64,000 nucleotides of DNA, from the NCBI GenBank assembly GCA_040285855.1, contig JAUFOQ010000004.1, positions 744,001 through 808,000 on the forward strand. Direction: 5' to 3'. Shown piece by piece: positions 8,421-63,269 of this stretch. A program made the translations under genes and the position numbers. Numbering within the stretch: position 1 is the first letter of the stretch; each line of letters begins with the position of its first letter. Source of the DNA: Eukaryota sp. GEM-RC1. Taxonomy: Eukaryota. The notes under the pieces were generated by a model. That model was not told the DNA's origin. It was given only the letters and a program-made list of their open reading frames with translations, and did no database searches.

Positions 8421-8520
8421 AATCCGAAGATTCAATAATGCTACAGATTCACTGTAGTAAATATAGGCTATGACTATGACTATGACAAATAACTGGGTCT
8501 AACTCCTAGACCCCGCTCCA
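8421..8520 (-). ncRNA. Putative Fanzor omegaRNA (scaffold to 8441, then flank-derived guide CATTATTGAATCTTCGGATT)
   Basis: Conserved with 39421-39498 up to a sharp breakpoint; hairpins GGGTCTA-ggagt-TAGACCC and CTACAG-tgaat-CTGTAG; 5' limit unknown. Confidence 0.55.
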
Positions 8521-10020: not shown

Positions 10021-10436
10021 TTTTTTTAAAATACACAGTTTTATTATAAATGCAATAGATCAACCAACTAAAATTTGATATCATTAAAACAACACCCGTC
10101 GCTATCAAACCTTACAACAGCGTTGTCCTCATAAATGGCACTCACTGCAAATAAAGCTTTGGAGATGATTAGGGGAACTGTTTTAAAACAGTAAAAACGA
10201 TCCGATTCAACCATAACATAAAATCAAAACGTTTGCTCATCCTATTTTTTACGATTTTTCCGAAATCGTTTAAACAATTCAATGCACTTTTTCCTAAACG
10301 TCCGTAAATTGGAAACAGCAAAAGGGCATAATTCATATTCAACATGTTTTACATGTGTTAAAGCCATCAATGGTTTCTTGTACTTATCCTGTTTAGCCTG
10401 TTCAGAAAAGTCTAAAGGAGAAGTTTCAGACGAAGC

Positions 10437-11967
10437 TAGGGATGCGAAAAAATATATTGTTATTGTATTTATTGCAATAAATATTCACAATAAATTTATT
10501 GTTGGTCAAAACAATAACAATATATTTATTGTGAGTCCCAGCAATAAATAATAATATTGCAATAATATTGTTTATTGTGGCAATAATTTTCATCACTAAA
10601 ATCATCCATCTGTTAAAAAAAATAGAGAGAATTTATTCGGCACCCAATAAGGTAACCTTCCTACAAACTATGAAATTGTAAAAACAAACAAATAATACTA
10701 AGATTAAATCCAAACGACTTCATCACCACCCGGTAAAAGATTACGTTTATCAACATTAACCTTCACACCAAACTTGTACAATTTCTCAATTAATCTAGAG
10801 AAATAGAAAGGCATATTCCGATATATGGAAAACACAATACGGTTTTTCCATTCAGCCATTCTAAACTTACGCTTCTTTTCTTTACACAATTCTTCAAAAT
10901 CCTTGAAAAATTGATCACCAGCAGGACTAATTGATCCAAAAGAGAAACATCAAAAGGTTGAAACACAAATTTGGAATATGAGTTTCTATTTAATTCTTCT
11001 ACTTGAGAGTCATACTTGGAGTGTTTGAGCTTTTCAGCAGCTGTTAACGGGTTAAAAGAAGAATCTAATATCCTACTAACACAAGATTTGTTACATACAT
11101 CTACTGTAGTAAAATCCATTAATGATTGACTCGATTTAAGCCACGGAGTATGTAGATCCCCTCTTTTTGATTCCATCTGTTTGATGTTACATGCAATTTT
11201 GCTTCCATTTGGGAGTAAGAAGATGTGTTGTGGGAGAAGTAGTCCTCTGAAGAGCTTTCACTTCAGGAAAAACAACCTAGACAAAAGAGTATAATATTTG
11301 TTTAAGTCAAATTGAAGACTGTTTGGCTTTTAAACTGCCGTAGTTCAACAAAGTCTAAACGGCAATCAAGAACTGATGACCGTAAGAGTGGGAAACATTC
11401 AGAAGAACTTTTTGCGTGGGACATACCAAGCAAGTCGAACGACTATTTAGTCGTGCTAACGTGACTACTGAAACCCTTCGCAAAAGACTATATACATCAA
11501 GTCTGGAAAAACAACTTTTTTTGAAAAAAAACGGATTTATGTGCGGAGAAAAACACATAATAAGAAAACAATAAATAAATGAACACTATTAAAACAAATT
11601 ATCAAACGAACTACCTAATTTCGAAAGGTACTAGTAGTTGCCTCCAAACAACTTGGACAAAATGGAATCAACATATCTTTTATTGATGTATAACTCTCAT
11701 CTATGGTGAAGATACTGTTCGCAAAAGTCGTAATACTAACCCTTGACTTGGTTGTTGGACAGTGAAGGAGATTTTACGGATGATGGCGAATAGACCACAA
11801 CAAAAAGGAGTCAACGGATTGCGTAGAAATATTGCCAATATATTTATTTATTTATTTGCAAACTTGACAATACCAATATTTTTATTGTTGGCCACAACAA
11901 TAACAATACATTTATTATCGTCGTGAACAATAATTTATTTAAATAAATATATTTTTTCGCATCCCTG
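10437..11967. mobile_element. Non-autonomous hAT-type TIR element
   Basis: TIR (T/C)AGGGATGCGAAAAAATATATT at both ends; 8-bp TSD GACGAAGC at 10429-10436 and 11968-11975. Confidence 0.9.
10631..11180 (-). mobile_element. 5'-truncated CRE-like LINE, family B, nested in the hAT element
   Basis: RGDL..DFTTVDVC..AAEKLKHSKY..FQPF..EWKNRIVFSIY; near-identical copy at 43211-43690. Confidence 0.75.
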
Positions 11968-12732
11968 GACGAAGCGTTCTTTAAAGATGTCTTTTTACAA
12001 ACATCCACTGACACTACATCAACAACAAACAATTTGTCTGAAGAAGAAGGGACAACAACATCTGCTCTCCGTTGACAACTATTAATTGGGTCTAAAGATC
12101 TTCGAAGTGGTTCAACAAATGATTCAATTTTATAAGACTTACAAATAGAATATATTTACCTGTTTATATCATTTTCATTGTTAATTCCAGTGATCGTCAA
12201 AATATAGAACTTTTAGGCAACTTTTTAGACAACTCCGTAACTAGGAGTTGGATACTACTCCGTATCTTTATTTCCAAAGATAATCTAATATGAGCAAGAT
12301 GTGAAAGATATGATGTTGACGACGCTGCTAAGACGGGGATGTCAGGGGTATCAAAGGAAATATATCCGGTATATGTGAAGTCAAGAAAGAAGGTAATACA
12401 ACTTCAAGTTGATGATCAAAAGATGTTATCAGAATGAACGCCAGCAATACGACAGTTTATTACCAAAGAGAACTACTGATAGATGCGACAGACAATGTGT
12501 CATATGGGAAAAAGGGAGGAAAATGTCGGACCGTGAAAAGTGCACACTATATAGTTTTACGCTATCAGTTTTTTGCTTTAATGATATTGAGTTCTAGTAC
12601 ATGTATTTGTGTTTACTTTAGTGTTTTTGTTCCATAAAAATGAAGCTATACAGTCATGGTCAAACCTCTATAATTTCTCCCTCCATAACTGCTCAGTCCC
12701 AAACATCTTGAACTTTGACATCACTTGTGAAC

Positions 12733-14229: not shown

Positions 14230-14759
14230 ATCCAATTTTTTGGTAAACGGAGAGCAGATGTTGTTGCCCCTTCTTCTTCAGACAAATTGTTTGTTGTTGA
14301 TGTAGTGTCGGTGGATGTTTGTAAAAAGACATCTTTAAAGAACGCTTCGTCTGAAACTTCTCCTTTAGACATTTCTGAACAGGCCAAACAGGATAAGTAC
14401 AAGAAACCATTGCTAGCTTTAAAACATGTAAAACATGTTGAATACGAATTATGCCCCTTTGCTGTTTCCAATTTACGGACGTTTAGGAAAAGTGCAATGA
14501 ATTTTTTAAACGATTTCGGAAAAATCGTAAAAAAATAGGATGAACAAACGTTTTGATCATATGTTATGGTTGAATCGGATCGTTTTTACTGTTTTAAAAC
14601 AGTTCCCCTAATCATCTCCAAAGCTTTATTTGCAGTGAGTGCCATTTATGAGGACAAAGCTGTTGTAAGGTTTGATAGCGACGGGTGTTGTTTTAATGAC
14701 ATCAAATTTTAGTTGTTTGATCTATTACATTTATAATAAACTCTAATTTTTCAAAAAAA
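14230..14759 (+). mobile_element. 5'-truncated CRE-like LINE, family A, with poly(A) and TSD
   Basis: RLE C-terminal motifs; poly(A) at ~14753-14760; 13-bp TSD AGTATTTTGTCAG at 14217-14229 and 14760-14772. Confidence 0.85.
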
Positions 14760-23217: not shown

Positions 23218-23591
23218 CTTGACAATATTTAACACAATTTTTGATTGAGTGGAGAAATTAAGTGTTACTGTATGTAAGTGACTTCAACAAAACATGAGTA
23301 AGTGAGTGTACACGAGTAAAATTCAAGTGCAGCGCCACGTTAATTTTATTAGAGAGACATCACCTTGAAATACCAGAATAAAAAACGGATTTTTGTACAG
23401 AGAAAAACACACAGCAAGAAAACAATCAAATAAATAAAGACTATTAAAAATTAAAACCAGAATTGGAATCAATTAATTTGTACTGATACAAATAACACAA
23501 TTAAATCAAATCAAATCTTGCACATAGCCTATTTTGATACTTCTAGTGTTGAACCATCACTTATAGGATGCAAGTTTATTAGAAAATGAAG

Positions 23592-24963
23592 CTACAACAA
23601 CTCAAGAACACAACTATGATTAGCCAAATACCCAACAAGATGGTAGTTATCATTATCTAAAGAACTAATTTCTCTTGTACAATTAAATCCAGGGTCTGAC
23701 TCTTTTGTAACAGTAATTGAATTATTCACAAGATTAATTGTGATTTCAATGATTTCATTTCGGTTCCATTTTCCATTAGGGGTTCCTGACGGATAGAAGT
23801 TATTCCTATGACTGTAAAAACAATGAGCATTTGGCTTTGAGTAAACACCACTACAATCAAACTCTTTTCTAGGAATAATTCCAATCATTAGTTGATTAGA
23901 AACAGACGAAGGAGTGCCATTCCTAGCCCTAACTTTATAGACATTTCCTGTAAGAAGAGGAGTTTCTGAAAGAACATTGGACCAGCCTGAACCATTGTGA
24001 GTAACAGTTTTTCCTCCATTTGAAATATTTAAATTTTGACTTTTGATATCAGATGAAAAGGAAAGAACTGAAGAATCAACAGGTTTTGCACATGTATCTT
24101 GTTTTTCAACATTTTCCTTCAATTTAAATATTTCTTCATCTTTTTGCTTAATTAATTCAGTTGCTTCAACCAATTGTTCTTTTAACGTCAAATTTTCAGA
24201 AATTATTGACTCGAAAAATATCGGACGTAATTGTTTAAAGTGAAACTTCATCAAAACTTCTTCCAAATTTGAAATATTCTCAAGAGGATTTAAAAACAGC
24301 CCATCCCAGTCTTTAAAAAGTCAACAGGTTAACGTCAACAAGGGTCAGAATTTGAGATAATTCTTCAGAATTTATAGTTTCTGATTTAACTGAAGCCACA
24401 AGTGACTTAAAAAACCATTTGAAAGAACTTGAAGAAGTGCAAAATTCGAGTAAACTTTGGAGAAAGACAAATGGGAAGACAAATTCAGATTTTTCACAAA
24501 TATTTTCAATTTCTGTAAGAAAATCTCCAACAAATTTTAATCCTCTCAAGTCTTCTTGTTCAACACACTTTGTCAAGAACTTGCTGCACCAGTCCCAATT
24601 GGTCATTTTTGAAGGGAGAATCTCCATAAGAGTAGTTTTAAGATGATCACACTGGAAGTAAGTAGCAAGGTAGAAAATATCATAGACGTTGGAAGAAGTG
24701 AGGTCGATGGTGTGACCAAAGAAGGACGAGATGAAGGCGGAGAAAGACTCAAATGATATGGGCAAATGCGAGAAGTCCAAAGGGTTCTCAAAGCGATCTC
24801 CAAACTCCATAAACCAAAGAGAGAAGAAGTACTGAGAGTTGGAAGCAAGGACTGACTTAATGACAGAGAAGGACTCATCATTAAAGATAATGGTTTGATC
24901 ATGGAGATCAGTGTTGGATTGGAGTGTAGAGAGAGTGTTGGGTGAGGTGGATGTGAGTGACAT
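23592..24963 (-). CDS. BTB/POZ - coiled coil - SPRY protein, copy 2 (one frameshift in a homopolymer at ~24315)
   Basis: ORFs 24313..25011 and 23592..24266; same domains as copy 1. Confidence 0.8.
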
Positions 24964-25935
24964 TGAAGGAGAGATTTGAATTTTGTATATTTCTATCAAT
25001 TCATGGTGCAATGAGATTGCCTAGTCGACAGTTAGAGATGATGTCATCAATGTAATGCTTAGTATGAGGGTTAGATTTGCCATACAATGATTAAATTTTA
25101 GCAATATATACATACGTTCTGTCACAAACTGAATCTGCATATAACACAACTTTATGATATGGTATGGCTTGTCAAATTCTAAACTAGTTCGGCTTCGGCT
25201 TGAGCCATTTGAGTAAGCCAAGCCAAATTTGGATATGAATTGGTCAAGTCGATCGTCTTACGGCTTGAGCCGAACCGTTTGACAGCTCTAACATAACATT
25301 ATTAAAAGCTATTTTATGATTAATGAAGTACGACCTGATCTCGATCTTCCTTTGGATGATTGAAGCATTTTATCACTTCAAAAAGTTTAGACAACAGCTG
25401 GTGGATTTATTATTGAAATTTTGTTCAATCATTAGATTTACATTTGTATAGAACATTATAAACTTCACAACCAGAAGCATATTCTTCACTCTGCTTGTTT
25501 CACGACCACGATGGTATGTGACAGTAGTCGGTGGTCTTTGTTATCGATCTGATGTCTACCACCACTGATGCTACGAGGGCTTAAAAATCATATGCATCGT
25601 AATTCTTATCTTTGTCAAAACAACCTAGAAATCAAACAGAACATTCATCTGTACTAAATCTCACGGCAACTGTTTGCTTATACAAATAATTAAAGTAGCT
25701 ACTGAATTATTAACAAGAATTGCTATAGAGTGTTAGTGTAATGGCGTATTAGCCTATTTGTACCTTTATGAATTCACTTTTCTTTATTCATATGACTAAG
25801 ACCAACAAGAGGGTGTAAAGATAATGCCATCCAAATGTGCCGACACTTTTGATCGGAACGGTTGTCCATTTTTTCCTCAAAGAGAATTTGTTGCTACAAG
25901 TAAAAATTGTTACACTGATATTGCAACGTCTTGAT

Positions 25936-28696
25936 TAGAGTTGCCGATTGACTCGACTCGAGTCTGAGCCTGAGCGTACTCAGAATTGTGTGAGTCGAAT
26001 CCGAGTGTACTCAAGAGTTTCCGAGTCGAGTCGAGTACGCTCAGTCTGCACTCAAAACGAAACGTCTTAATTTTTGTTTTTATTTGTGTTTAACGACAAA
26101 AATTGAAGATCATAAGGTAAAGTATAACCTATTAACTATGCAAAAACCTTTTTGAAGAGAGTAGTGGTGGAAGTTTAAACGGATCAAAAACACCAAATTT
26201 AACAAAACTAAAATATAAATAAAGTAGAAGTTACATTATTAACTACATGTACTGTTGTAACTAGAACAGTCATTTTCATTTTCTTCCCTTCACAATAAAG
26301 TTTGGTATTCACCTATGTTCTTTCACAAAAAAATGATCTGAGCAGCAAAAAACTGTCCAGTAGGTAGACTTCAAACGAACGAAAATTCATACTGTAACGG
26401 TTGTAGGTCCGTCTTTATACTGAAGAGTAGAAGTAACATCACTTCTTGTTTGTTTAACGCAGTGATGAGAAAATTTAATTTAATTATAATTTATTGAGTT
26501 AATTCCCTGAGAATTAATTACATTAATTGTACTTTACTGAAGCCTGGCAAAAAGGCATTGTTTATTTTTACATTTGGGATTAAGAAATCAAACATATAAC
26601 GAACAGTTAGTCTCCCCAAAAGTGATCGGGAAAGACATTTTCTTGACAAAAACTCATTTCGTGATCACTCAACGACCTCTTGGGATATATACGTTAGAAG
26701 AAGTGTGTCTTTAACGAAGTGTAATAGGTAGTGTGGCCGTATAGAATGCTCAAAAGCGTAGATTGACATCAGGGGTACACCGTAGTTAGCTGTTAGCTTC
26801 TATAAGAGACAAGAGACCAGTGTTTGAACGAAGTGGTGTAGATTATAAGTGTTATCTTAAGTGGTACATGTAGATACTTTTTATTGACAAAGAATGTGTA
26901 TGTAGATCATAATAGGAGGATCGGTTATCGAAGGATAAGTATTATTAAATTCAGTACAATTGACTACAGATGAAAATACAACACATACATGATACATGAT
27001 ACATTTATGTTGTGTTATAGTCTTTATAGTAGAAAGTTTCTATTAGAGTTTCTAATTAATTGTAGGCCACAGGAATTGAAATCAATTAATTGAGAACGTC
27101 AAAAATTAATAATTTAATTCATCTGATCAGTAAATTGTTGACAAACGATGAGCTAAAAAATTGACTATGAGTCTATGGACTGAGTACGCTCGACCAGGAA
27201 TCGGAATTTATTGTATTGTATTGTATTGTATTGTATTGCACTTTTGCAGACTGCAACAATAAATAGTTGTATTGTTAATCAATAATCACAAAGTTATGTG
27301 AATCAGGTATAACTGATTAACATCATTAAACAACATTTGCTAGTATGGTACAGTCGACTTGAAATGGTCATAGTAGTTTTAATAATGACATTGCTAGTAC
27401 ATCGTGATGGATTTAGAAACAGTAATTTTCGATCCACCCACCATCCATCTATTAGCAAAACGGGTGACCATACAAAATTGTTAAAGAGAGAATTAATGCC
27501 AAGAACATTCAACATGTATGTCTGTACTCTACTTAGTAGATGATCCAGCAGATTGGCGGTAGCAAGTGGTTGAAGGTATGACCTACCATGTTCAAAATTC
27601 TTGCATTTGATTTATGCAAATTGTCTTACGGTGTCATTCATTCAGAAGCAGACCGTCGCCATTGATATTATGTTTGAAACACGGAAACTGCTTAAGAAAA
27701 ACCAGGATTTAACACGAACTGTGACGGTAAACAAACAGTGAAATGCTGCTCGGTCAAATAGACGAATCTCTATATATCAGCAACAAACTTATCGAAAGTA
27801 GAATATATATAGTGTTCACATGGAACACACAACAACCAATATTTACTATTTAGGGCGATAGTGTTGGATTCAGCGATTGCCAATTGATGCATTAACAATC
27901 GGACGTCACATAGTTGTCTCTAGTAGATGTAGGACACTCGTAACAATCACCTCTGACCTCAAGAAGTTGTCACAGCTCTGTTTGGATGAGTAGGTTTTAG
28001 AGAAAAAGACAGGGAAACTAATTTGTATTGCAATCAATGTATTTTACTTATTGTATTGTATTGTGGTACTCGAACAATATATAATTGTGATATTCTGTAT
28101 TTACAAAATCGGCTTTTATTTAATCATACAAATACAAACTATCATCAATTTTAACAAATGAGATACAAATACCTCTACATCATCTCAATTTCATGTCTCA
28201 ATGCAAAGAGACGGTTCAAAATCGAATCAAAATACCTCAACAATGCTTTGAAAAGGAAAAACGACAACATTCCTCTCCAGGAACTTTCATTAAAATTCTT
28301 TGCATACTGCTTACACAATTTGCCAAAATCTGTGAGAAATTGTTGACCGAAGTAACCAAACGTACCATAAAGAGAAATAGCAAAAGGATGGAAAACAAAA
28401 GGATTGTGTAGGCGAGAATTCTTATCTTGGAAATTAATTCACCATAACGATCTAATTTTTTCCTTTCAGCAGTTTTAAGATCTGAATAGTTTTGGTCAAA
28501 AATATACTTAACAGAAGTTGAGTTACAAGGATCAGCCGTAGTAAAGTCCATAATTATTTCTTGAGAGGTCAACCAATTGTATTTACATTATTTGTAGTGC
28601 AATTATTTATTTCCGATCAGTGCGCTCGACTCGACTTGAGAATACGAGTTCGAGCGTACTCACACTTGTCTGAATCGAGAGTCGACGGCAACTCTA
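25936..28696. mobile_element. Decayed hAT-type element with nested insertions
   Basis: TIR TAGAGTTGCCG; TSD GTCTTGAT/GTCGTGAT (7/8 match); GACTC/GAGTC subterminal repeats; LLIDGW remnant; interior 26380-27850 repeated at 62180-62940. Confidence 0.7.
28090..28580 (-). mobile_element. 5'-truncated CRE-like LINE, family C
   Basis: MDFTTADPCN..TAERKKLDRY..PFAISLYGTFG; homologous to 45880-46150 and 63270-63515. Confidence 0.65.
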
Positions 28697-29301: not shown

Positions 29302-30660
29302 TTAAAAGCCCATTCTACTACCGTGTAACGATTTAATTGACTCTTTTGTTTCACTGTCAATAGGGTTGCCGAAAAGAAGAATTGATGAAACAGATGTGTT
29401 CACCTTTAAAGCCTCTGCAAGTGCCACAGCACCCTCATTTCCAATAGAGTTTTGATATAGATAAATCGTAGATAGAGCCGAATTCACCTTTATAGCCTCT
29501 GCAAGTGCCACAGCGCCCTCATTTCCAATAGAGTTTTGGTAAAGATACATCGTAGAAACCGAGGAATTCACCTTTAATGCCTCTGCAATCGCAACAGCTC
29601 CTTCCTCTCCAATGGGGTTTCTGTCCAAACAGATCTCTGAAACAGATGAAGTCACCTTCAGAGCTTCAGCAACTAGTTTAACATCCTCAGGACCAATAGA
29701 CATGTTACTTAGATTGACTTCAATGATTGTATTATTTATCATTGAATCACAACAATTCTTCAATGAGGAACCTGGGGTTAAACCAGGGGTTAGAGAACTG
29801 AGGTTAATGGAGGAAGAACCTGGGTGGAAGGTCAAACCACTTGTTGTGGGTTGACCAAGAAAGGCACCAGTACCGAAAGTTCCAGCAGTAGTACTGGGAG
29901 GATTGTTGCCAAAAGAACTACTAGTACCGAAGGAAACAGACTGTGGGGGAGATGATTTGCCAAAGGAACCAGAACCGAAAGTTCCAGCAGTAGTACTGGG
30001 AGGATTGTTGCCAAAAGAACTACTAGTACCGAAGGAAACAGACTGTGGGGGAGATGATTTGCCAAAGGAACCAGAACCGAAAGTTCCAGCAGTAGTACTG
30101 GGAGGATTGGTGCCAAAAGAACTACTAGTACCGAAGGAAACAGACTGTGGGGTTGATGGTTTGCCAAAGGAACCAGAACCGAAAGTTCCAGCAGTAGTAC
30201 TGGGAGGATTGGTGCCAAAAGAACTACTAGTACCGAAGGAAACAGACTGTGGGGTTGATGGTTTGCCAAAGGAACCAGTACCGAAAGTTCCAGCAGTAGT
30301 GCTGGGAGGATTGGTACCAAAAGAACTACTAGTACCAAAGGAAAGAGACTGTGGGGGAGATGGTTTACCAAAGGAACCAGCACTGAAAGTTCCAGTGGTA
30401 GTACTGGGAGGATTGTTAACGACAGAACTACTAGTACCAAATGAAACAGACTCTGAGGCAGAAGAGGGTTCAAGTGGTTTCGGATCTTGGGGGGAAAACT
30501 TTGGAACAAAAAAGGCATGTTTCTTCAAAGGAGAAGATACATGGGATCTTAAAGGTTCTGAACGGTGAGTCACTCGAAAACAATCATCGCATAGGTCAGA
30601 ATCACATTCAGCGCAATTAACAGTTGAAGGAGTTTGCTTACATTCGATGCATTGAGACAT
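29302..30660 (-). CDS. B-box zinc finger + FG-rich tandem repeats + ribonuclease-inhibitor-type LRRs
   Basis: CIEC..CAECDSDLCDDCFRVTH..H; 34-aa repeats; 28-aa LRRs such as LYQNSIGNEGAVALAEALKVN. Confidence 0.85.
   Translation of the reverse strand: MSQCIECKQTPSTVNCAECDSDLCDDCFRVTHRSEPLRSHVSSPLKKHAFFVPKFSPQDPKPLEPSSASESVSFGTSSSVVNNPPSTTTGTFSAGSFGKPSPPQSLSFGTSSSFGTNPPSTTAGTFGTGSFGKPSTPQSVSFGTSSSFGTNPPSTTAGTFGSGSFGKPSTPQSVSFGTSSSFGTNPPSTTAGTFGSGSFGKSSPPQSVSFGTSSSFGNNPPSTTAGTFGSGSFGKSSPPQSVSFGTSSSFGNNPPSTTAGTFGTGAFLGQPTTSGLTFHPGSSSINLSSLTPGLTPGSSLKNCCDSMINNTIIEVNLSNMSIGPEDVKLVAEALKVTSSVSEICLDRNPIGEEGAVAIAEALKVNSSVSTMYLYQNSIGNEGAVALAEAIKVNSALSTIYLYQNSIGNEGAVALAEALKVNTSVSSILLFGNPIDSETKESIKSLHGSRMGF
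29855..30452 (-). repeat. 102-bp coding tandem repeat, ~6 units
   Basis: Unit SVSFGTSSSFGTNPPSTTAGTFGSGSFGKPSTPQ. Confidence 0.95.
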
Positions 30661-31060
30661 TTCGAAAGAAGATGAAGAGTTATCAATATGACAGTCGATC
30701 AAAAGGAAAACTTGGTCTGCCGTTCAGAACTAGAAGTTATTTATTGTAGTTATTTGCTGGTGACGTGTTTAAAAGCAGTTGGTGAAGTAAAGAAAGCAGA
30801 TGAAGTTTGTTCATACTATTTGAGCGAGTATTATTTGAGCGTATCGTTTGACACTAAATGAATGTTCAGCAAAGTAGTTTATTTTGTATGGATAGAAGGA
30901 GAGAGTAGCTATTTTACGGGAAACTCGCTTGTCAAGACGGACAGAAGTGGGAAATTGTAAATGATTGACTTGAAGTGTTGAGGAAAGTTCTTAAAATACA
31001 TCCTCTGCTTCTTTCTTCATCAATCACAGTGACGTAAACCACACAGATAAAACTAAATAG

Positions 31061-33539: not shown

Positions 33540-34214
33540 CAGGGATGTTAAAAAATATATTTTTATTTTATTTATTGCAATAAATATTATTTATTTATTT
33601 ATTGTCAGCAGCTGGATCAACAATATATTTATTGTCTCAAATCGCAATATGCAATAATATTGCAATATATTGCAATATTGTGACAATATATTTTCATTGC
33701 AAATATCGAACTTTCTTCATTTCAATTCTTACAGTACTGTCTCAATTTTGTAACCAAGGATACAAACAGTTGATCATACCATCATGTAACAAAATTGAAA
33801 GATTGTTCAGTCGAGCAAAGCTTACTACTGGCACTCTTCGATCACGTTTACACCCTTCAAGCCTTGAGAAACAGTTACTTTTACTCTACAACTCCCAACT
33901 TTGGAATGAAGAGACTGATCGAAGAATTCTCCTCCACAATCCTTTTCAAGATTTGTTGCACTAAGATGGGGATGTAATAGATGAAGAATAGATTATACTA
34001 CGATAGCAATTTTTCACTGATTGATCATAAACCCGGTTTTTCTACATTATACCAGTACTAAAGTTGCAGCAGATAATAATGTCAATAAATATATTTATTT
34101 ATTGTGATGCCCGACAATATCAATATATCTATTGCAAGCCCACACAATATCAATATATTTATTGCAAGCCCACACAATATTTTATTTATTTAAATATATT
34201 TTTTAACATCCCTG
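33540..34214 (+). mobile_element. Non-autonomous hAT element with a dimerization-domain remnant
   Basis: 23-bp TIR CAGGGATGTTAAAAAATATATTT; 8-bp TSD GTTGAAAT at 33532-33539 and 34215-34222; PSCNKIERLFSRAKL..RSRLHPSSLEKQL. Confidence 0.93.
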
Positions 34215-34222
34215 GTTGAAAT

Positions 34223-37200
34223 CTTTTTGACCTGTATCTCATTGCCTTTTTCGCTTCCAAACACTGCAAAGTGTTTCGAATGATAGTAACAGGATTCAGT
34301 TACTCGCACTATCACTCGTCGTTTTTCAACAGTCGTTTTAATCAACAGTCATCTCAGTTTTGTCATGACCTAACCACGGACGGAGGCATAGAGTCCAATC
34401 CAGGACCTCCTCTTACAGATGACCTTAGAGATGAGCAACTGAGACCCGTTTTTGCACCAAACGTAGACAATATCGAGACGTTAGAGCCCAACGTCTGGGT
34501 TAATGATGATGTCATCGACTTATACGGTGATTTTCTTACAAAAAGCAGCAAATGTTGTCAGTACTTTCCAATCAATGACCTGCTTGGTGCTTCTGGTGTT
34601 TATGATTTTCAACTATTGTTAAAAAAAATTCGAATACCTAATAACTTCAATGAATGTTTGTGTTCCGAAGAAACGATTCATATTCATGCCAATCAACGAT
34701 GGCCTTGTCGGTAAAACACCGACTCATTGGACACTTCTAATTTGCGATATTAAGATTAGACGACTTTTTTCAATCGATTCAACGTATACTGAAGAGGAAC
34801 ACTTCAAACATCTGGCGAATACAATTCGAGCTTCTCGCAATGAAAAAGTAGTCCAACGTTTACAGCAAGATTTGTTTAATGACGCACAGTATTTGTATAT
34901 GGATAAACTAGTTGTAAAGCAAGAGCAAACTGAAAACGATTGTGGACCTTTTATTCTATTGTACATTCAAAAGTTTGTTACCTTAACAGACTCATATATT
35001 GATTGTTCATCTATCGATTTTAAGGAAATTTTAACCAAACTTGTAACTAGCCAAGACTATGATGCTTTAAAAATGAGGAAAGAAGTTTTGACTCATATTT
35101 CGACTACTCAATCAGCAGAGAGGGCTAAACGTGCTAGAGAAATCTTAAACAAATTCTTTTCCGTTTATTCGACACCTTCTCAACAGCGTCGTAAACCCAA
35201 AAACCAGATGCAAGAAAGAAAAAAGGTCCTAAAACTAAACAACCGGCCAAAAAAAGAAAGAAGACTGCTAATACTTCTCAATCTCCCGGTCCATTGTGCC
35301 ATATCACTGAAAGTAAATCTTGCTAGGTTCAAGGGACTAAAAACATGGAACTCGCCGTTTGATTTATCTGAACCTTCTACACTGATATCATCTACTCATG
35401 AAATTCCAGATCCTAACAAACTGACAAAAACTCAATTACAAGAGGTTTCAGAAGCAATCAAATCGTTGTCATCTGAAGAATCGATTGCAGAAGAATGTGT
35501 CAATTGGTACTCTCGTCATTTGATGGACATATACAAAGTTGATTTCAATGCCTTTGTAGCTTCTGGATCACTTCAATCATATTTAGTTGATGAAACTCAA
35601 TCTCTCCACGAGTTTTTCATGAACAAGATTCTTCAGACAGATTCCAGATATCTTTTTGTTCCAATAAATGATGCAATGACTGGTTTACATTGGGGTTTGA
35701 TTGTAATTGACAAAAATGATCTACAAGTAATATTTCTCGATCCTCTTTATAATGTTGAAGATCACAGGCAGGATGTTGATAAAAATTTAAATGAAATTGA
35801 CTCTTATTTGAATCAAGATATTTCAAAAATACATGAAATTCTTCATCAACTCCAGTTTCAGCTCATTATTGTCCCAGTGCTACAGAAACAAACAGCAAAT
35901 GATTGTGGAGTATATGTTCTTCAGTTTATGCGAGGACTTATAGAACTTCTGACTTCAAACCAATTCACAGATCAATCTCTTCTCCATGCTGCTGATAGAA
36001 TGATACAACAACCTATCAATACTAGGGAGAGTAGACAAGAAATAAAAGTGTACCTTCAATCTCTACAACCTCCTACAAGTAGAAACCGCATATCTGGACA
36101 AACCAAAATTAAGCGAACATGCAAATATCCGGTGAAAAAAACTGACAAAGTTGCTCAAAAAAAAGTCAAAAAGGATTATACGAAAGCCCAGTGATTCTGA
36201 TATAGAGGTTCCAAATGTGACTCATAAAGAATTTCTAAATAGTTTACCAGGTGATTTGTCTAACCGACAAAGAGACGTCGCTTGAAGTTGCACATGATAC
36301 AACACGCACTTCAAGAAGCTGAACAATTGTTTCAGGATTCTTTGATTCGTCCAAAGTTAGAGACTTTAGCTCCAATAGATTTGACAACTCCTAAAATAAA
36401 CGTTGCTGCTTGTGAGAAAACTGAAACCACAAAGACACCAGCTAAGAGTACAACAAAAGTTGGCAAATCCAAAAAGTCAACAACCAAACCAAAGGCAAGT
36501 GGTAAAACTAATGCTACCAAGAGTCTTAAACCTCCTAAGAAACAAATGATTGAGTTTCATTGTAATTCTGAATTACCAGAAGACTCTAACTCTTGTTCAA
36601 TATTGTCGTTTGATATTGAAACAAGAGAAGTTGATCAATTGCCTGTTAAGAAACTTACACAGAAGTTGAATGATCAAAGACATGAACAAAATGAAGTTTT
36701 AAAAAACCAAAGTGATTCAGAAAGAGAAGCTTGGATTGAAAAACAACAAGTGTTTATGATTTCTGGAGTTTTCGGTCATTTTATTAAGGATGAGTTTTAC
36801 CTTCAAGAAAGCTTCGTTGCGACTTCAGAAGAATCAACTTCCTTTTCAAAAGTTGAAAATCCAACTGATTGTCATAGCCTTTTCTTCTTTGAAGATGAAA
36901 AACAGTTACTAGAGTTTTTTGTCAATTATTTGACTGATAAAAATCCATCTGTTTTAACTGGATTTAACATTACTAATTTTGATAATGTTGTTCTAGACAA
37001 TAGAATTGATGCATTTGGAATAGACTTTCCAGAACCAATGCAAGATGATACCACAAAATCACATTTGTCACCTTTATGGCAACGTGTTTGTACTGAATGG
37101 GCTGGTAGAACTGTCTGTGATTCTTACCTCTATGCTAAACAATTCATTGCTACAAAATGTTCAAGATCACTAAGATCACTAAGTTGGTTTTTATTAAATG

Positions 37201-39498
37201 AATCAAAAGGGCATCTCCATGACAAATTCGAACACTTGTTACCTATTGATTGTGTTAGTAGACGACCTCAAGAAGTTCTAAACTATTGTTTCCAAAGACA
37301 GTGTATTAGCATTGAAGTTGTTTTTATTATTTCAATCAAATAAAATAGTTCGTCCCACTTTTGTAACACATAAGACTACACTGAAGTCTATTGTAAAACA
37401 TACAGGACTGGAATTATTGTTGAATTATTATGCTCTATTGGTTCATAAGCTACGGATGCACACTTCTTATTGTTTGAAGCTGTTTTTATTGCATTTAAAT
37501 AAGAATGAGCTTCCACTACCATTAATTTCAAGGAAAGAGGTTGAACACATTCAAACGTTGCTGAAGGAAATCTCTGCTGATCGTCATAAGATTAAACTAA
37601 ACAATGGAAATCCAACAATTAATGACGACTTGAGAACATTTGTTACAAATCAATACAAACAAGTAATGATGGACAATGGTGGTATTCCACAATTTCCAGC
37701 TGCATATTCTCCACGACTTATGGCAATGGTAGGTGAAACAATCAAAACAAATTTGAACACCAATATTAAAATGCGATATCCTCAGTACATTGACAAATTT
37801 ATTAATGTTTGGTTTGAAAAGAATAGTGTTGAAGAAGAAATGTCTAAAAAAGAAAAGTCTGTATTTCGTTGGAGATTGAGACAAGTAAAGAATGTTTTTC
37901 TTCAAAGGAATAGAAACGATATTCCAACGACCACTGAAGAAATACAGGAGTTTATTGAACAATCTAATGCAGAAATTCTTGAAGATGACAGTGAGAAAAG
38001 CTTAAGCATTGCAGATAAAATGCAACTTTTAAGGCAAAGCCACGACACTGTTCTAAAACTGTTCCAAGATAATGTCTGCATTGATATCCTCTTCCCACCA
38101 ACAATTAAAATTCAAAAGTCAAATGGTGATTATGAAGACAAACAGATTGATTCTCTACTTAAAGCAGTACATGAACATCCACAATCGTTTATTAAATCAG
38201 CAATACAGATAAATAACTTTCTTGAAGAGGATGAAGCCAGTACTTACAATATAATTCCGATTGTTCGACACGTGGTTCCAGGCTTCTTTGGAAGTAGACA
38301 CACAAGGTCTTTGGGGAATATTACGTTCCACATTAACCAATCATCAGGTTAAAGAGAAAAAAAACAGATCTGAGTGGAATTCAATTGAGGAAAATTAGGC
38401 ACATGTCTCCTGCCGAACAAAATCAATTCTGGTCATACTTTGTCAATTTTAATCGTCCATTTATAAAGAAAGGCTATAAGTTTAACAATTCTATTAAAAC
38501 TGATGGTTTCTCTGCTTGTGTTGAACTTACCAGAGAGGACTGTGTGGGAATGTCGTTCAAACCAGACAGCGCAAAGTTCTCCAGTACTGATGAATATGTT
38601 CAAGACTATGATATTGAAGAGTTTACATTGAAAACAAAAGTTTACATTGATCCTGGCAAGAAGGATTTACTCTACTTCTGTTCAGAAAAAATAAGAAAGC
38701 CAGAAAATTTAGCCCGTGAAATGAGAAACAAAGAATACGAGTGGCTAAGATTGACAGAAACAGAATGGTCGAGATTGTCCAGAGTCCATCAAAAGTTTAG
38801 AAGGGAAAAGAAAAAAGAATTTATTCTCCGAGATGAAAAAACGGTTGAACAAGAAGAGTCAACATTATCCAAAGAAAATTCAAAGTCAACCGTGTATGAA
38901 ACCTTCTATGACTATGTGGGTTCCAAACTGACAGTTATTGAATCAACATTTGATTACTACTGTTTGATGATATGGCGCATTCAAAAATGCAAAGATATGT
39001 CCATATTCAAAAAACAAAAAGTAAGTTGTTGAAAAATATGACTGCAAAAGGATGGAATAAAAATGACTGTGTATTGATGTTTGGTGACAATGGTAATAAG
39101 AGGCAGAACCTAAAACACCTCCGATCAAGTAGAGGTGTGATGTGGAGAAACTTCTTTAAGAGAAATGGTTACAATATTGTTCTCGTAGATGAGAGTTACA
39201 CGTCTTCAAAGTGTCCTACTTGTTGGGGGCCAGTCAAAGTGTTTATGGAAGTTGACAATCCTCGACCCAAGACACAAGAAGAGAAGCCTACGGTGAAGTT
39301 ACATGCGTTGTTGAGATGTCAATCTGAGAAGTGTAGAGAAGAATGTGATGACAAAGACAAAGTGTGGAATCGTAACAAGTTAGCGTGTATCAACATCAAA
39401 GCTATTGTGGAGCATCATTTGGAGCGGGGTCTAGGAGTTAGACCCAGTTATTTGTCATAGTCATAGTTATAGACTATATTTACTACGTGAATCCGCAG
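34223..39498 (+). mobile_element. Fanzor-encoding element; right end defined, left end not determined, no transposase recognised
   Basis: Homology with the copy at 8441-10020 stops abruptly after GTGAATC(C/T)G(C/T)AG at 39498. Confidence 0.7.
34280..39460 (+). CDS. Multidomain Fanzor polyprotein (~1700 aa once frameshifts are bridged): 2A-like peptide, 2x Ulp1/SENP protease, PolB-type DEDDy exonuclease, Fanzor/TnpB RuvC
   Basis: Six same-strand ORFs joined by single-base shifts. DLTTDGGIESNPGP; PIND..HW..DS..Q..NDCG twice; SFDIET / TGFNITNFD / YCxKD; KTDG, YIDPG, VDESYTSSKCPTC, WNRN..ACINI, RPSYLS*. Confidence 0.85.
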
Positions 39499-39862: not shown

Positions 39863-40807
39863 CAGTTTATGGAACAAAAACACTAAAATAAACATAAATA
39901 CTAGAATTCAATATCATCAAAGCAACAATCATTGCCATTAAAACACACATCAGATTTTTCTTCATAAAAAACACTGAGAGCTAATAGAGCTTTTGAAATC
40001 ATGATAGGAATTGTTTTAAATATTGTAAAAACAATACGATTCAACCAAAATTTGAAATCAAATTTCTTGTTCATTCTTTTTTTGACCACTTTCTCAAAAT
40101 CAGAGAGAAAACAAAGAGCATCTCTACCAAGTCGACCATAAATTGAAATTGCAAAAGGACATAATTTGTACTCAACATGTCTAATATGTTTGAGAGCAGT
40201 CAGTGGTTCATCATATTTGTTTCTCTTGTATTGTTCTGAAGAATTCAGTGGAGAAACTTCATTTTTAGCATCCTTGAATGCACTTTTTTTGCAAACATCC
40301 ACAGTAATCACATAAACAACGGTTAGTTCATCATTAGCTGATGGAACTATAACATCAGCTCTTCGTTTACCAAAAGTCTTATCAGAATCACTATTTTTGG
40401 AAATTATTGATTTCCAGTGATCTCAACAGTGGCTCAACGAAAGATTCGATTTTGTAGGACTTACACATAGCATGAATTTGATCTCTGACAGCATCATGAA
40501 TACAAGTTCTATAAGTAATGAAACGATTACAACTCAAAAGGTGAGAAAAAGTAACTAATTTACCACATTTGCATTGAAGATCATTGGGTAAATTAGAGGG
40601 CCACAAGAAACATCGAAGTCTGAATGTTGTAGTCCATTGATGATCATTCAACAACAAACCATAAATCTGAGGAATTTGGTTAATCAAAGCAACTGAAGAA
40701 CTGTCCTTCAAATCGATTAAAAAATTTGCGACAGCTGGATTTTTTTCTTTGGCCGAGCCAAGTCGAATTTTAAAATCCAAACATTCAAAATGTTTTAAAA
40801 GGTGTTT
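39863..40807 (-). mobile_element. 5'-truncated CRE-like non-LTR retrotransposon (zinc knuckle + restriction-like endonuclease)
   Basis: CKCG..HLLSC, IHDAVRD, EP, RADV, TVDVC, K..KY, PFAISIYGRLG; 13-bp TSD TTGCAAAGAAGAT at 39850-39862 and 40808-40820. Confidence 0.88.
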
Positions 40808-40887
40808 TTGCAAAGAAGATGAATACTACTAGTACAGTAGTACAGTTCATACTTGTAGTATGAAAACGGATTTCAGAATTTAACTTC

Positions 40888-43210: not shown

Positions 43211-43690
43211 TTTATTCGGCACCCAATAAGGTAACCTTCCTACAAAACTATGAAATTGTAAAAACAAACAAAAAATACTAAGATTAAATCCAAACGACTT
43301 CATCACCACCCGGTAAAAGATTACGTTTATCAACATTAACCTTCACACCAAACTTGTACAATTTCTCAATTAATCTAGAGAAATAGAAAGGCATATTCCG
43401 ATATATGGAAAACACTATACGGTTTTTCCATTCAGCCATTCTAAACTTACGCTTCTTTTCTTTACACAATTCTTCGAAATCCTTGAAAATTGATCGCCAG
43501 CAGGACTAATAGATCCAAAAAGAGAAACAGCAAAAGGTTGAAACACAAATTTGGAATATGAGTTTCTATTTAATTCTTCTACTTGAGAGTCATACTTGGA
43601 GTGTTTGAGCTTTTCAGCTGCTGTTAATGGATTAAAAGAAGAATCTAATATCCTACTTACACAAGATTTGTTACATACATCTACTGTAGA
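43211..43690 (-). mobile_element. 5'-truncated CRE-like LINE, family B
   Basis: Near-identical to 10631-11110; possible TSD ACATTGTAA. Confidence 0.75.
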
Positions 43691-43882
43691 TAGACATTGT
43701 AATAATTCTCATTTGAGAAGTTTACTAATTTCCGAGTTTAGGTTTGTAAAGAAGTTTGGCTTTGTAGTTTTTGAACTACATGTATATGTACATTGTGTGT
43801 ACAATTTGTCATATGGAGTCAAGTGAAAGACATCTGAAACGATCGGTCAAAATCAACATGAAATATCAGTTTTTCTCGTATC

Positions 43883-52009: not shown

Positions 52010-52590
52010 AGGTAAGTTTTGTGGAATAGTCTTATGATTTTGGAACCAGTTCTGGCTATATGGATGTTTGACAAATCGTTTGGAAACAGTTATGAGGGTT
52101 TCTTCATCATTGCTGAAGTCACATGTATTGATGTTTGTAATGAAGCCAACCAGAGACTTGTCAAATGCAATGTTAAAAAAGCTCTTTTAATTGGTGAAAA
52201 GTTCAAAGAGGAAAAATAATGTGCTAAATTGATACAATCGATATTGACTTCGGTTTCACACGATTTGCGTGTTTTTCCCATTTTTATTCTCGTAATTTGT
52301 TTCTCTTGGTGCACCAGCAACATCATTGCTTGGAATCCTTGTGAAGATTGTAAACGAAATAGCACATGGCTCTTTAAATCTTAGAAATAAAATCTTTGCA
52401 AATCTTTGGAAAAATCGAATTGTGTTTACTCTCTTTAAAGGTATGGTGACTTTTCTTTCTTATGCATCATTATCTCATGACAGACATTATGAGGATAAGC
52501 TGTGGACGATTTGGATTTTGATGACATTCATTTTTGAATGTATGTACACTGTTATGTTGTTTTAGCTCGTAGTATATTTTTTTGAAGTAA
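52010..52590 (+). mobile_element. Decayed CRE-like LINE 3' fragment, family D
   Basis: EVTCIDVCN..GEKFKEEK..LWKNRIVFTLFKG. Confidence 0.6.
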
Positions 52591-52819
52591 AAACTGATGT
52601 GATTTTTTATGGCAATGATTGTTGCTTAAATGATATTGAGTTCAAGTTTTTGTGTCTATCTTAGTGTTTTTGTTCCATATAGAATACGCAATTTGTAAAA
52701 AAAAGGTTATGTTGTTTTTAATGAAATATTCGTCAAACGAGAAATGAAAAAAATAGTGTATTATGGATTTATATGGACAAAAACACATACCGCGATATAT
52801 GTTTCTGCAATTTTCTGAG

Positions 52820-57025: not shown

Positions 57026-58001
57026 TGAGAGTGAGTGATTTAACTCAATTAATGAACTTATGTTAACCTGTCAAAATGAAACCAATGAAACCGAAACCAA
57101 ACTAAAACTTCTTCAAAACGGATTGGTTGGCCATTTTCAGCTTTGTGACTGATTTTAGTGGACAATGATCATCATTTTCGTCATTACAATACGTTTAGAC
57201 ATGGAAACAATGACTACCCAATCATCAGCAGGTTTTAAAACCATTGAATGATTTACAGCTTTTATGCAAAACAAATCATTTTTACAGCATTTTTACAGCA
57301 AATCGTTCCTAGCTCTTCGTTGTTCGCTAAAACATCATTAATGATGTCAAATTTCTCAATGTGTCACTGCCTTTTAAAAAAAATCTTTTAAAATCTTTAT
57401 TATTATTTTTTTCTTGAAACCCTTTCTCTCCTGCTTGATTGCCAATGGTATCCCACTAGTATTATCAGTAGATGCACGTCAGTCATAGCTTTTATTTCAC
57501 ATAACAATAAACATCCATCATCGTCTGTTCACACTGCACGGAACAAGCCCTCGATTTAGTGCCTAACTCGATTTAGTGCCGGTCCAAACAGGGGCACTAA
57601 ACCGAGGGAAGACTGTATCTACATTACTATCCTGCTATAACTTCAGCAGGGACAGAATATTTCTGTTGTAATTAATCTGAGTCATAAATTTTCGACTATA
57701 TATACATTTTTTAAAACAATTCATGTTATGATCTCCAAAGCTGTTTTAACTCTACGTTTATTCACAGAAAAATTTTATGTGATATTCAGAGGCAATAACT
57801 GTTGCTTTAATGATATTCAGTTCTAGTTTATATTCCTTTCTTTTTGTAAACCCACGTTTTAAGGAATAGTGTTTACCATGTGCAGCATTGAACTAATTAA
57901 ACCGATTTCTTATGTACTAAAGAGATGATACTGTATTTTGATTAAATCTAAAGCAATCTAATAGATTTTGTAAATTACAATCATCACTAATTACATTAAT
58001 C

Positions 58002-60276: not shown

Positions 60277-60710
60277 GTTTTGAGTTTCGTGAATGATGAA
60301 ACAGTTTGTGAATCACTGGTAGTACCGGTATCACTTGAAAATATTTAACATAATATTTATTGAAGTGTTACCGTATGTGAACGACTTCAAAAAAACATGA
60401 GTAACTGTGTTTACAAGAGTAAAATTCAAGTGCAGCACCACTATAGTGTTGATCTTATTAGAGTGACATCACCTTTAAATACCAGAATAAAAAACGGATT
60501 TATGTACAGAGAAAAACACACAGCAAGAATACAACAAAAAATTAAAGACTATTAAAAATTAAAACCAGAATTGGAATCAATTAATTTGTACTGATAAAAA
60601 TAACACAATTAATTCAAATCAAATCTTGCACATAGCCTGTTTTACTACCTCTAGTATTGAACCATCACTTCACTTACACTTATAGAATGCAAGTTTATTA
60701 GAAGATGAAG

Positions 60711-62088
60711 CTATAACAACTCAAGGACTGAATGTTTCCAATGCAAACACCCAACAAGATGGTAGTTATCATTATCTAAAGAACTAATTTCTCTTGTACA
60801 ATTAAATCCAGGGTCTGACTCTTTTGTAACGGTTATTGAATTATTCACAAGATTAATTGTGATTTGAATAATTTCATTTGAGGGCCATACTCCATTAGGG
60901 GATCCTGGAGAATAGAAGTTGTTGTAAGCACTAAAGAAACAATGAGCATTTGACTTTGAGTAAACACCACCACCACTAACAAACTCTTTTCTAGGAATAA
61001 TTCCAATCATTAGACAATTACGAATAGACGAAAAAGGGCCATTCCTAGCCCTAACTTTATAGACATTTCCTGTAAGAAGAGGAGTTTCTGAAATAACATT
61101 ATACCAGTCAGTTGGACCATGGTGAGTAACAGTTTTTCCTCCATTTGAAATATTTAAATTTTGATGTTTAAGACTAGAAGAGAAACTCAAAACTGAAGAT
61201 TCAACAGGTTTTGCACATTCCTCCTGTTTTTCAACAATTTCCTTCAATTTAAATATTTGCTCATCTTTTTCCTTAATTAATTCAGTTGCTTCAACTAATT
61301 GTTCTTTTAACGCTAAATTTTCAGAAATTATTGACTCAAAAATATCGGACGTAATTGCTTAAAGTGAAACTTCATAACAATTTCTTCCAAATTTGAAATA
61401 TTCTCAAGAGGATTTAAAAACAGCTCATCCCAGTCTTTTAAAGTCAACAGGTTAACGTCAACAAGGGTCAGAATTTCAGATAATTCTTCAGAATTTATAG
61501 TTTCTGATTTAACTGAAGCCACAAGTGATTTTAAAAACCATTTAAAAGAACTTGAAGAAGTGCAAAATTCAAGTAAATTTTGGAGAAAAACAAATGGGAA
61601 AACAAATTCAGATTGTTGACAAACATTTTCAATTTCTCTAAGAAATTCTCCAACAAATTTTAATCCTCTCAAGTCTTCTTGTTCAACACACTTTGCCAAG
61701 AACTTACTGCACCAGTCCCAATTGGTCATTTTTGAAGGAAGAATCTCCATAAGAGTAGTCTCAAGATGATCACATTGGAAGTAAGTGGCGAGGTAGAAAA
61801 CGTCATAGACGTTAGAAGAAGTGAGGTCAATGGAGTGACCAAAGAACGAAGAGATGAAGGCGGAGAAAGACTCGGATGATATGGGCAAATGAGAGAAGTC
61901 CAAAGGGTTCTCGAAGCGATCTCCAAACTCCATAAACCAAAGAGAGAAGAAGTACTGAGAGTTGGAAGCAAGGACTGACTTAATAACAGAGAAGGATTCA
62001 CCATTAAAGATAATGGTTTGATCATGGAGACTGGAGTGTTGGACTGGAGTGTAGAGAGAGTGTTGGGTGAGGTGGATGTGAGTGACAT
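60711..62088 (-). CDS. BTB/POZ - coiled coil - SPRY protein, copy 3 (frameshifted)
   Basis: ORFs 61328..62179 and 60711..61247. Confidence 0.8.
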
Positions 62089-63269
62089 TGAAGGAGAGAA
62101 TTGAATGAAGATTATCTAAGAGATAACAGATCTTTCTATTAGGGATGGCGGCCGGCCCACTTTTTACTCTCGACTTCAAAGGGACGAAAATTCATACTGT
62201 ATCGGTTGTAGGTCAGTCTTTATATTCAAGAGTAGAAGTAACATCACTTCTTGTTTGTTTAACGTAGTGATGTGGAAAATTTATTTAATTATAATTAATT
62301 GAGTTAATTCCCTGAGAATTAATTACATTAATTGTACTTTACTGAAGCCTGGCAAAAAGGCATTGTTGTTTTTACATGTGTCGGACCCATTTGGGATTAA
62401 GAAATCAAACATATAACGACCAGTTATTCTCCCCAAAAGTGATCGGGAAAGATATTTTTTGACATAAACTCCTTTCGTGATCACTCTTGGGATATATACG
62501 TTAGACGAAGTGTATAGTGGATAGTTACACCATCCATCTATTAGCAAAACGAGTGATTTTACAAAATCGTTAAAGAGAGAATTGATGTAAGAACATTCGA
62601 TATGTATGTCTGTACTCTCCTTAGTATATGGTCGGGCAGATTGGCGGTAACAAATGTTTGAAGGTATAACCCATCATATTCAAAATTCTTGCACTTGTTT
62701 TATACAAAGATTGTCTTACGGTCATTCATTCAGAAGTACCGTATCCTTTGATATTATGTTTGAAACACAGAAACTGCTTAAGAAAACCCCCGAATTTAAC
62801 ACTAACTGTGACGGTAAACAAACAGTAGGATGCTGCTCGGTCAAATAGACGAATCTCTATATACCAGCAACAAACTTATCGAAAATATAATATAAATAGT
62901 GTTCACTTGGAACACACAACATCCGACTATTTACTATTTACAGCAATCTCATCTTCTACAAGTGTTACGTTCGACAGAGTTTGAGAGAAAAAGACTCAAC
63001 TTTGTTTTTTTGATGAGCTTGAGTATTTCACAAGTCATGTCTCAAGCCAATCCACTCTCTCGATCACTAAAGTAACTCATGTATTATAGAGAACGAGACC
63101 AATGAAGTTTACTTTCCGGCAATTTCTCTATATGTATTTATATTTTGTTTAATTTGTTTTATTTTGTTTTATTTGCATATTCTTCAAAAAGGCCCAAAAA
63201 GAAATAATAATACAAATAAATACAATTCATTAGAATTTGTATTTATTTATGAGGAGCCCTGGATATACT

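Follow-up and report, generated by a model that had tools for sequence, protein, structure and literature searches.

A 64,000-nucleotide stretch of DNA from Eukaryota sp. GEM-RC1 (contig JAUFOQ010000004.1, positions 744,001 to 808,000; referred to here as the window) carries on its plus strand an element (34280 to 39498, from its N-terminal peptide to its right end) in which a full-length Fanzor1, a TnpB-derived nuclease predicted to be RNA guided, directly follows a PolB-type exonuclease, behind a front consisting of a 2A motif and two C48 (Ulp1-type) protease domains. Comparison with gene models of related genomes leaves us almost certain that the exonuclease-Fanzor fusion is a genuine feature of a whole family. 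The parts are all known modules, and other transposons carry DEDDy exonuclease and Ulp1 domains as well; the fixed fusion to a Fanzor appears to be undescribed.

The relatives are gene models labelled Eukaryota sp. GEM-RC1, TZLM3-RCL, and TZLM1-RC, which we take to be the skoliomonads, soda-lake protists, of 10.1101/2023.05.03.539051 (this source and the others cited below were available in part); TZLM1-RC is presumably S. litria. Among the 78 family rows, many of them near-copies, ExoIII lies 28 to 29 residues upstream of the first Fanzor strand in all 26 models that hold this strand. An earlier note on this DNA, made from the window sequence alone, had named copies with a Fanzor free of the preceding region as evidence against a fusion, and none of the 26 is free of the exonuclease. 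ExoI through RuvC-III is complete in a single chain in 9 of the 78 rows, which come from TZLM3-RCL and TZLM1-RC; KAL0213088, KAL0221781, KAL0226007, and KAL0227444 are among the complete models. At least six groups of exonucleases can be distinguished, with 26 to 50% identity, and the Asp and Glu of ExoI, the Asn and Asp of ExoII, and the Tyr and Asp of ExoIII are invariant in the 10 rows aligned (26 to 99% identity). The junction is common to three genomes and at least six subfamilies, and its sharing by three genomes practically rules out chance adjacency. Consistently, trees of the exonuclease and of the Fanzor (6 rows) have both supported splits in common, and the identities of the two domains correlate (Spearman, 0.79; 15 nonindependent pairs). 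In a quick tree, which included 60 of 95 nonfamily Fanzor rows and no TnpB or Fanzor2 outgroup, nine family rows formed one side of a branch opposite the 60 other Fanzors (Shimodaira-Hasegawa-like approximate likelihood ratio test [SH-aLRT], 100). The ratio of nonsynonymous to synonymous substitution rates between this copy and a second one in the window is 0.25 over 504 codons, which at the codon level shows purifying selection on the Fanzor.

Only six of the best 150 library matches were hit by an exonuclease profile, and all six come from the three family genomes; Pfam (E, 1e-4) found no extra domain in the 66 nonfamily Fanzors scanned. None of five pattern matches in viral contigs was confirmed. 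In metagenomes, 4 of 406 were, two of them starting at a contig edge; the matches L001 (662 amino acids [aa]) and L003 (651 aa) are Fanzors that stand alone. In L003 (2 to 2515), the 651-aa Fanzor1 directly follows a DDE transposase-like open reading frame (ORF), the known Mariner/IS630-Fanzor layout. P0205, tried as an exonuclease row, proved not to be an exonuclease, and its alignment was discarded. In P0191 (KAL0221217; 2,027 aa), a DEAH-type helicase domain precedes the exonuclease-Fanzor pair; this join is likely a merged gene model, the alternative being a captured helicase.

Exonuclease and Fanzor domains

The Pfam scan that the earlier note had proposed returned two stretches of Peptidase_C48, DNA_pol_B_exo1 (E, 8.6e-17), and, below its cut-off of 26.3, Cas12f1-like_TNB, a zinc-finger domain of the TnpB type (E, 1e-4; 22.8 bits). 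The exonuclease (36594 to 37335) displays the ExoI DxE (36609), ExoII NxxxFD (36960), and ExoIII YxxxD (37284) motifs of PolB-type DEDDy 3′-5′ exonucleases, together with their fold. No polymerase domain follows it: DNA_pol_B was not matched by Pfam, and in the relative P0004 the Fanzor starts at residue 248. An AlphaFold model of P0004 (predicted local distance difference test [pLDDT], 81; predicted template modelling score, 0.66) matches the Pol epsilon exonuclease over residues 1 to 246 (Z, 15.8; root mean square deviation [rmsd], 2.9; 172 aligned) and SpuFz1 residues 18 to 631 over residues 248 to 940 (Z, 27.5; rmsd, 3.9; 564 aligned). Its seven best structure matches are all Fanzor1 proteins. 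Since the two matches abut at 246/248, the last exonuclease helix is predicted to run straight into the Fanzor without a linker. Every aligned family exonuclease also has a well-predicted two-helix insert after ExoI (36640 to 36745 in the window), which is a candidate site of contact with the Fanzor or with DNA.

The Fanzor1 extends from 37345 to the stop codon at 39458 to 39460. RuvC-I reads IDPG at 38646 (catalytic Asp, 38649); of the 16 family rows surveyed, 13 have DPG, 2 have DLG, and 1 has EPD. A shifted RuvC-II Glu (39191) precedes TSxxC and a C4 zinc finger in all 16 rows (DESYTSSKCPTC in the window). RuvC-III is WNRN rather than WNRD (Asn, 39374), and the Asn is found in all 16 rows, near-copies included, so that the literal RD motif of PMC3627910 is absent from them; the Fanzor piece of P0208 in this survey is a pattern-cut fragment of 141 aa. 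Among 96 rows of 560 to 800 aa, one of which is a family fragment, 81 have RD, 2 have RN, and 13 were unscored. A RuvC domain inactivated by RN was considered and rejected: GtFz1 has the Asn and cuts, and the D606N substitution raised the activity of SpuFz1 (PMC11423790). By its residues, the RuvC triad of the window is thus D-E-N, as in the active GtFz1.

Variable front and state of the window copy

The window copy spans six overlapping plus-strand ORFs (34220 to 34714, 34623 to 36194, 36264 to 37343, 37282 to 38352, 38337 to 39032, and 38954 to 39460), which lie where the earlier note had placed them and which it had joined into about 1,700 aa; our read-through, with an X at each break, has 1,704 positions and no stops, and encodes a 2A motif, two C48 domains, the PolB-type exonuclease, and a full Fanzor1, in this order. 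All the motifs previously named occur in the expected order. KTTLKSIV, assigned before to a complete Fanzor1-like C terminus, marks the start of the Fanzor, and the protein therefore ends in a whole Fanzor1 of which that C terminus is a part. Frameshift-aware alignment with eight relative gene models located eight one-base breaks, at 34622, 35199, 36159, 36268, 37293, 38290, 38393, and 38982; as aligned to the siblings, the last three lie within the Fanzor1 part and the one at 37293 in the exonuclease, at ExoIII. Seven had been listed before and were all recovered; the one at 35199 had been overlooked, as had an 82-nucleotide (nt) stretch (35279 to 35360) that is missing from the siblings P0033 and P0031 and that offsets this break within a 523-aa ORF. 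The stretch may be either an intron in the sibling models or a true sequence difference. Sibling models (76 to 95% identity) cross seven of the eight breaks residue for residue, and TZLM3-RCL models cross the eighth. P0033 (956 aa; 2A-C48-C48-exonuclease) is 94.8% identical to the window copy, and P0027 is 49% identical over 929 aligned residues. Single gene models in relatives, P0024 (1,571 aa; 2A-like motif, C48, exonuclease, and Fanzor) and P0033, bear out the proposal of one long fused protein.

The front begins with a short N-terminal peptide (34280 to 34408) ending in a putative StopGo/2A motif (34367 to 34408). The core (D/G/C/N)(V/I)ExNPGP and a DLTxDG-type hexapeptide are both found in the window, P0033, and P0017; P0199 and P0202 have the core only, and the core deviates in P0105, P0207, P0208, and P0024. 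The window motif is of the DLTxDG class, with Gly at the position where P0033 has Asp. This class prefers Asp, although Gly belongs to the expanded core of the 2A motif classes (PMC12846837), and an inactive 2A on account of the Gly is unsupported.

Protease domain 1 (34490 to 34995; His 34725, Asp 34746, and Cys 34941; one break in the A8 run at 34621 to 34628) is followed by a basic linker (35100 to 35400) that holds the break at 35199 and the 82-nt stretch, protease domain 2 (35480 to 35960; His 35688, Asp 35709, and Cys 35904), and a Lys-rich linker (36000 to 36590) with a short helix kept in near relatives and the breaks at 36159 and 36268. Peptidase_C48 was matched with an E value of 1.3e-21 (77.9 bits; cut-off, 20.7), and both His-Asp-Cys triads are present along with the oxyanion Gln. 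The structure model of this region is of low confidence (pLDDT, 29.5; 9 sequences), with a weak match to a solved structure (E, 3e-4); the probable C48 assignment draws on Pfam and the intact triads.

The same front, 2A-C48-C48, is found in P0033. P0024 (2A-like) and P0017 have 2A-C48 fronts with proteases unlike each other; C48 was recognized in P0024 by motifs only and scored 18.6, below the cut-off, in P0017. In P0202, a protease remnant precedes the 2A, and skipping would therefore release the protease. The 2A is followed directly by the exonuclease, with no protease between them, in P0105, P0207, and P0208, and in P0041 we saw a repeat-rich linker but neither 2A nor protease. The C48 proteases, as read from these models, are thus optional: there may be two, one, or none, and they may come before or after the 2A. 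Of the enzymatic cargo said earlier to be tethered to the Fanzor, the exonuclease holds in all 26 models; the proteases do not, as a rule. The claimed order holds for the window subfamily, and what stays constant is the pairing of exonuclease and Fanzor. As a separate observation, P0032, P0039, and P0040 of GEM-RC1 represent a second C48 subfamily, 60% identical to domain 2, with a different N terminus and with the basic linker following the protease, which points to shuffling of modules.

We lean slightly toward an intact window copy. Its 1,675 codons contain no stops, and 2.2 to 6.5 would be expected from eight indels at an assumed 5 to 15 substitutions per indel (chance of none, 0.11 to 0.0015), which favours sequencing error over decay. 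Also on the side of error, runs of at least 5 bases hold four of the eight breaks in only 4.3% of the region (P = 2e-4). Three points count toward real decay: natural slippage favours runs too, a hAT insertion lies 60 nt from the first Met, and the break at 38982 recurs in the GEM-RC1 models (see below). Short-read correction often leaves repeats unpolished. The assemblies of the named relatives were made from R9.4/9.5 nanopore reads with such correction (10.1101/2023.05.03.539051). A host ORF of 892 aa would survive the same indel rate with a probability of 0.015, and the breaks are therefore specific to the repeat, which fits error and decay alike. In a control set of three repeated genes of the window, various kinds of indel occurred, and they did not distinguish between error and decay.

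Ends and surroundings of the element

A second, 5′-truncated copy lies on the minus strand (8441 to 10037; 84% DNA identity and 2 stops) and has kept the right end. The two copies are alike as far as 39498, which lies 38 nt beyond the stop codon, and then diverge. The final 100 nt form a stem closed at this position and including a 7-bp hairpin (39427 to 39445), and the right-end block (39405 to 39498), which overlaps the last codons, is a candidate omegaRNA scaffold. Between the two sequences, two differences in the stem keep pairing but are one-sided, with no compensatory changes, and Rfam returned no match for the right end beyond one at chance level. No inverted repeat was found, and searches for a target site duplication (TSD) in the two copies yielded only chance-type matches of 7 to 10 nt. 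Neither a transposase nor a reverse transcriptase was found inside the element (in ORFs, by Pfam, and upstream as far as a THOC1-like gene), in line with the absence of a visible transposase reported earlier; a host element of the Mariner, Helitron, Sola, MuDR, or Dada type would carry one. The upstream 550-aa ORF was tried as a transposase and rejected; it resembles THOC1 (score, 0.89), which is a lead.

A hAT-like nonautonomous insertion (33540 to 34214) with terminal inverted repeats and an 8-bp target duplication sits about 60 nt upstream of the first Met; it is a later event, outside the coding unit. A second such element (about 10438 to 11968) is interrupted by a fragment of a long interspersed nuclear element (LINE). 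Both hAT-like elements carry what we take to be a remnant resembling the hAT dimerization region. Fragments of LINE 3′ ends of the restriction-like endonuclease (RLE) type, from at least two subfamilies, occur at about eight places (10036 to 10436, 10632 to 11182, 11964 to 12155, 14238 to 14759, 28205 to 28432, 39866 to 40825, 43211 to 43708, 52278 to 52679, and 57698 to 57833), one of them downstream of the element; the window does not contain the reverse transcriptase itself. The left side of copy 2 joins the 3′ tail of such a fragment directly and in the same direction; with LINE fragments at so many places, chance nesting is likely. In P0210 (TZLM1-RC), a matching LINE with a zinc knuckle and reverse transcriptase is joined to an exonuclease-Fanzor piece.

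Elsewhere in the window, three minus-strand gene copies (5000 to 6430, 23218 to 25030, and 60334 to 62200) are about 90% identical and each broken at different places; these, the control set above, are presumably BTB-like plus SPRY-like genes. Another minus-strand gene (29302 to 30723) combines a zinc-finger-like N terminus, about five 34-residue Ser/Gly/Phe repeats, and leucine-rich repeats.

Possible role of the exonuclease and known counterparts

Sequence comparison establishes the fusion with its fixed spacing, the preservation of the active-site residues, and a Fanzor under purifying selection; RNA guidance and the nuclease and exonuclease activities of the family are predictions from sequence and model. 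We see about an even chance that the exonuclease trims the DNA end left by the predicted RNA-guided cut and so aids copy-in repair. The RuvC domain (D-E-N) would be brought to sites without the element by an omegaRNA that comes from the right end and uses the flank as its guide. The end on the side of the target-adjacent motif (TAM) would carry a short 3′ tail mismatching the element-bearing donor junction, the tethered exonuclease would remove this tail in place, and repair could then copy in the element again. At the 2A, the upstream part would be split off. The C48 proteases would be swappable extras that likely remove SUMO or a similar tag, a function suggested for other transposons too. 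Fanzor1 enzymes cut 14 to 21 bases past the TAM, and cut-and-copy retention has been proposed for them (PMC10432273); in yeast, Pol delta proofreading removes as many as 40 nt from a 3′ end during invasion (PMC10868807).

Several points weigh against such a trimming role. The break at 38982, before RuvC-II, occurs in all six GEM-RC1 models that reach it, and in view of this shared break the GEM-RC1 subfamily may be dead or recoded; it is found in none of 10 TZLM3-RCL models nor in window copy 2, and its recurrence may be due to a base-calling error that is systematic, to inheritance within a dead subfamily, or to recoding. The window copy has as many as eight breaks, and RuvC-I is decayed in P0042. 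The relatives are all AUGUSTUS gene models, of which P0017, P0191, and P0210 look chimeric, so that single models weigh less than the repeated junction. The candidate omegaRNA folds only weakly (z, −2.5 for copy 1 and −0.5 for copy 2); no left end, TAM, or TSD was found in the window copies; and the geometry of a guide targeting the empty site is borrowed by analogy from SpuFz1. The exonuclease profile matched none of the 95 nonfamily Fanzors of 560 to 800 aa, and the domain is therefore not needed for the usual Fanzor life cycle. Finally, TREX1, TREX2, and T5 fusions all impaired editing by MmeFz2, albeit with other enzymes and another readout (PMC12923547).

The exonuclease might instead erode the cut beyond rejoining and thereby destroy targets such as excised sites, rival elements, or invading DNA. 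This is a less likely role that the same fusion and active-site evidence would fit, as would the 5′ overhangs left by SpuFz1, whose recessed 3′ ends such an enzyme could degrade (PMC10432273), and the increased editing or deletion size obtained with exonuclease fusions of other guided nucleases (PMC12337685 and PMC13545839). However, no guide match to other DNA was found within the 64-kb window, and the multicopy spread with kept right ends resembles a selfish element. It is rather improbable that the exonuclease and proteases are leftovers of a larger DNA transposon whose transposase has been lost or acts in trans, and that they serve transposition rather than the Fanzor cut. Dada transposases do contain a DEDDy exonuclease with a proposed role in processing cleaved 3′ ends (PMC3706591), Ulp1 occurs in Ginger1 and Mutator transposons (PMC2836005), and the upstream parts of our family vary freely; yet the Pfam-scanned family models contain no transposase domain, the one weak DDE_Tnp_IS1 match (E, 0.02 to 0.03) falling inside the RuvC lobe, and the spacing to the Fanzor is fixed at 28 to 29 residues across 26% identity.

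Maturation of the guide by trimming of the omegaRNA 3′ end, rather than of DNA, seems marginally less plausible still. DEDD enzymes include RNases, and the omegaRNA would presumably come from a long transcript passing the right end, but the close matches are all DNA polymerase proofreading domains and RNA maturation in other Fanzors takes place with no domain of this kind. We give similarly low odds to an RNA-guided cut-trim-copy element that is self-sufficient and spreads without a transposase, by repair or through the reverse transcriptase of an RLE-type LINE, the latter idea arising because copy 2 is truncated at a LINE tail and P0210 is joined to a LINE. Separate decayed genes joined on paper, whether by chance adjacency or by gene prediction, could explain the eight breaks and the chimeric look of some relative models but are very improbable, given that siblings and TZLM3-RCL models together cross all the breaks and three genomes share the junction.

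Full-text searches returned no natural fusion of a Fanzor or TnpB to an exonuclease or protease in titles or abstract beginnings, and the architecture is, as the earlier note had supposed, unfamiliar among described Fanzors in this literature; supplements, subscription journals, or Repbase could hold the family. In their available portions, PMC3627910, 10.1101/2023.08.09.552727, PMC10530073, and PMC10691335 do not contain "exonuclease," PMC10432273 contains neither "fusion" nor "fused," and the genome paper 10.1101/2023.05.03.539051 mentions neither Fanzor nor TnpB. Described Fanzors are single-enzyme proteins whose cellular role is still open. A complete exonuclease kept fused across at least six subfamilies suggests that the fate of the cut end matters to the element, and the fusion makes this question testable by mutating one active site while keeping the other. 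It also extends the known diversity of Fanzors to metamonad protists and to a polyprotein layout with 2A and proteases, and is a natural counterpart of the exonuclease-nuclease fusions hand built for editing, which failed on one Fanzor2, MmeFz2.

Among known systems, SpuFz1 (Spizellomyces punctatus Spu-1; PDB 8GKH and 9CEU to 9CEZ) and PpFz1 (9CF0) share the predicted whole Fanzor1 fold (template modelling score to target, 0.80), DPG, the shifted Glu, the C4 finger, and the lack of a transposase inside the element. SpuFz1 is a stand-alone protein of about 630 aa with 30-nt inverted repeats, whereas our family has a fused exonuclease, optional proteases and 2A, and Asn as third catalytic residue, and inverted repeats were not found. 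GtFz1 (Guillardia theta; PDB 9CER) has the D-E-N triad and an omegaRNA overlapping the last codons, for which the window offers a candidate, and, like the window element, no reported inverted repeats or linked transposase; its fold is more distant (Z, 21.9; 16% identity), and it has no fused enzyme. The proofreading domains of family B polymerases (Pol delta, Pol epsilon, and RB69 gp43) resemble the family exonuclease in fold and ExoI/II/III motifs, but the latter lacks a polymerase domain, has its own two-helix insert, and is fused to a TnpB-derived nuclease. Dada, Ginger1, and Mutator likewise fuse an exonuclease or Ulp1 to the main enzyme of a mobile element; there the partner is a DDE transposase, whereas our family has a Fanzor in its place and contains no transposase. 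Non-long-terminal-repeat retrotransposons with 2A (Ingi, L1Tc, Rex1, L2, and CR1) also place StopGo near the ORF start (PMC3708506), but the window element is without their reverse transcriptase or APE domain. Finally, exoCasMINI, TREX2-Cas9, and TREX/T5-MmeFz2 tether an exonuclease to an RNA-guided nuclease as well, but they are man-made and use other exonucleases; such engineering lowered MmeFz2 activity, whereas the fusion in this family is natural and conserved.

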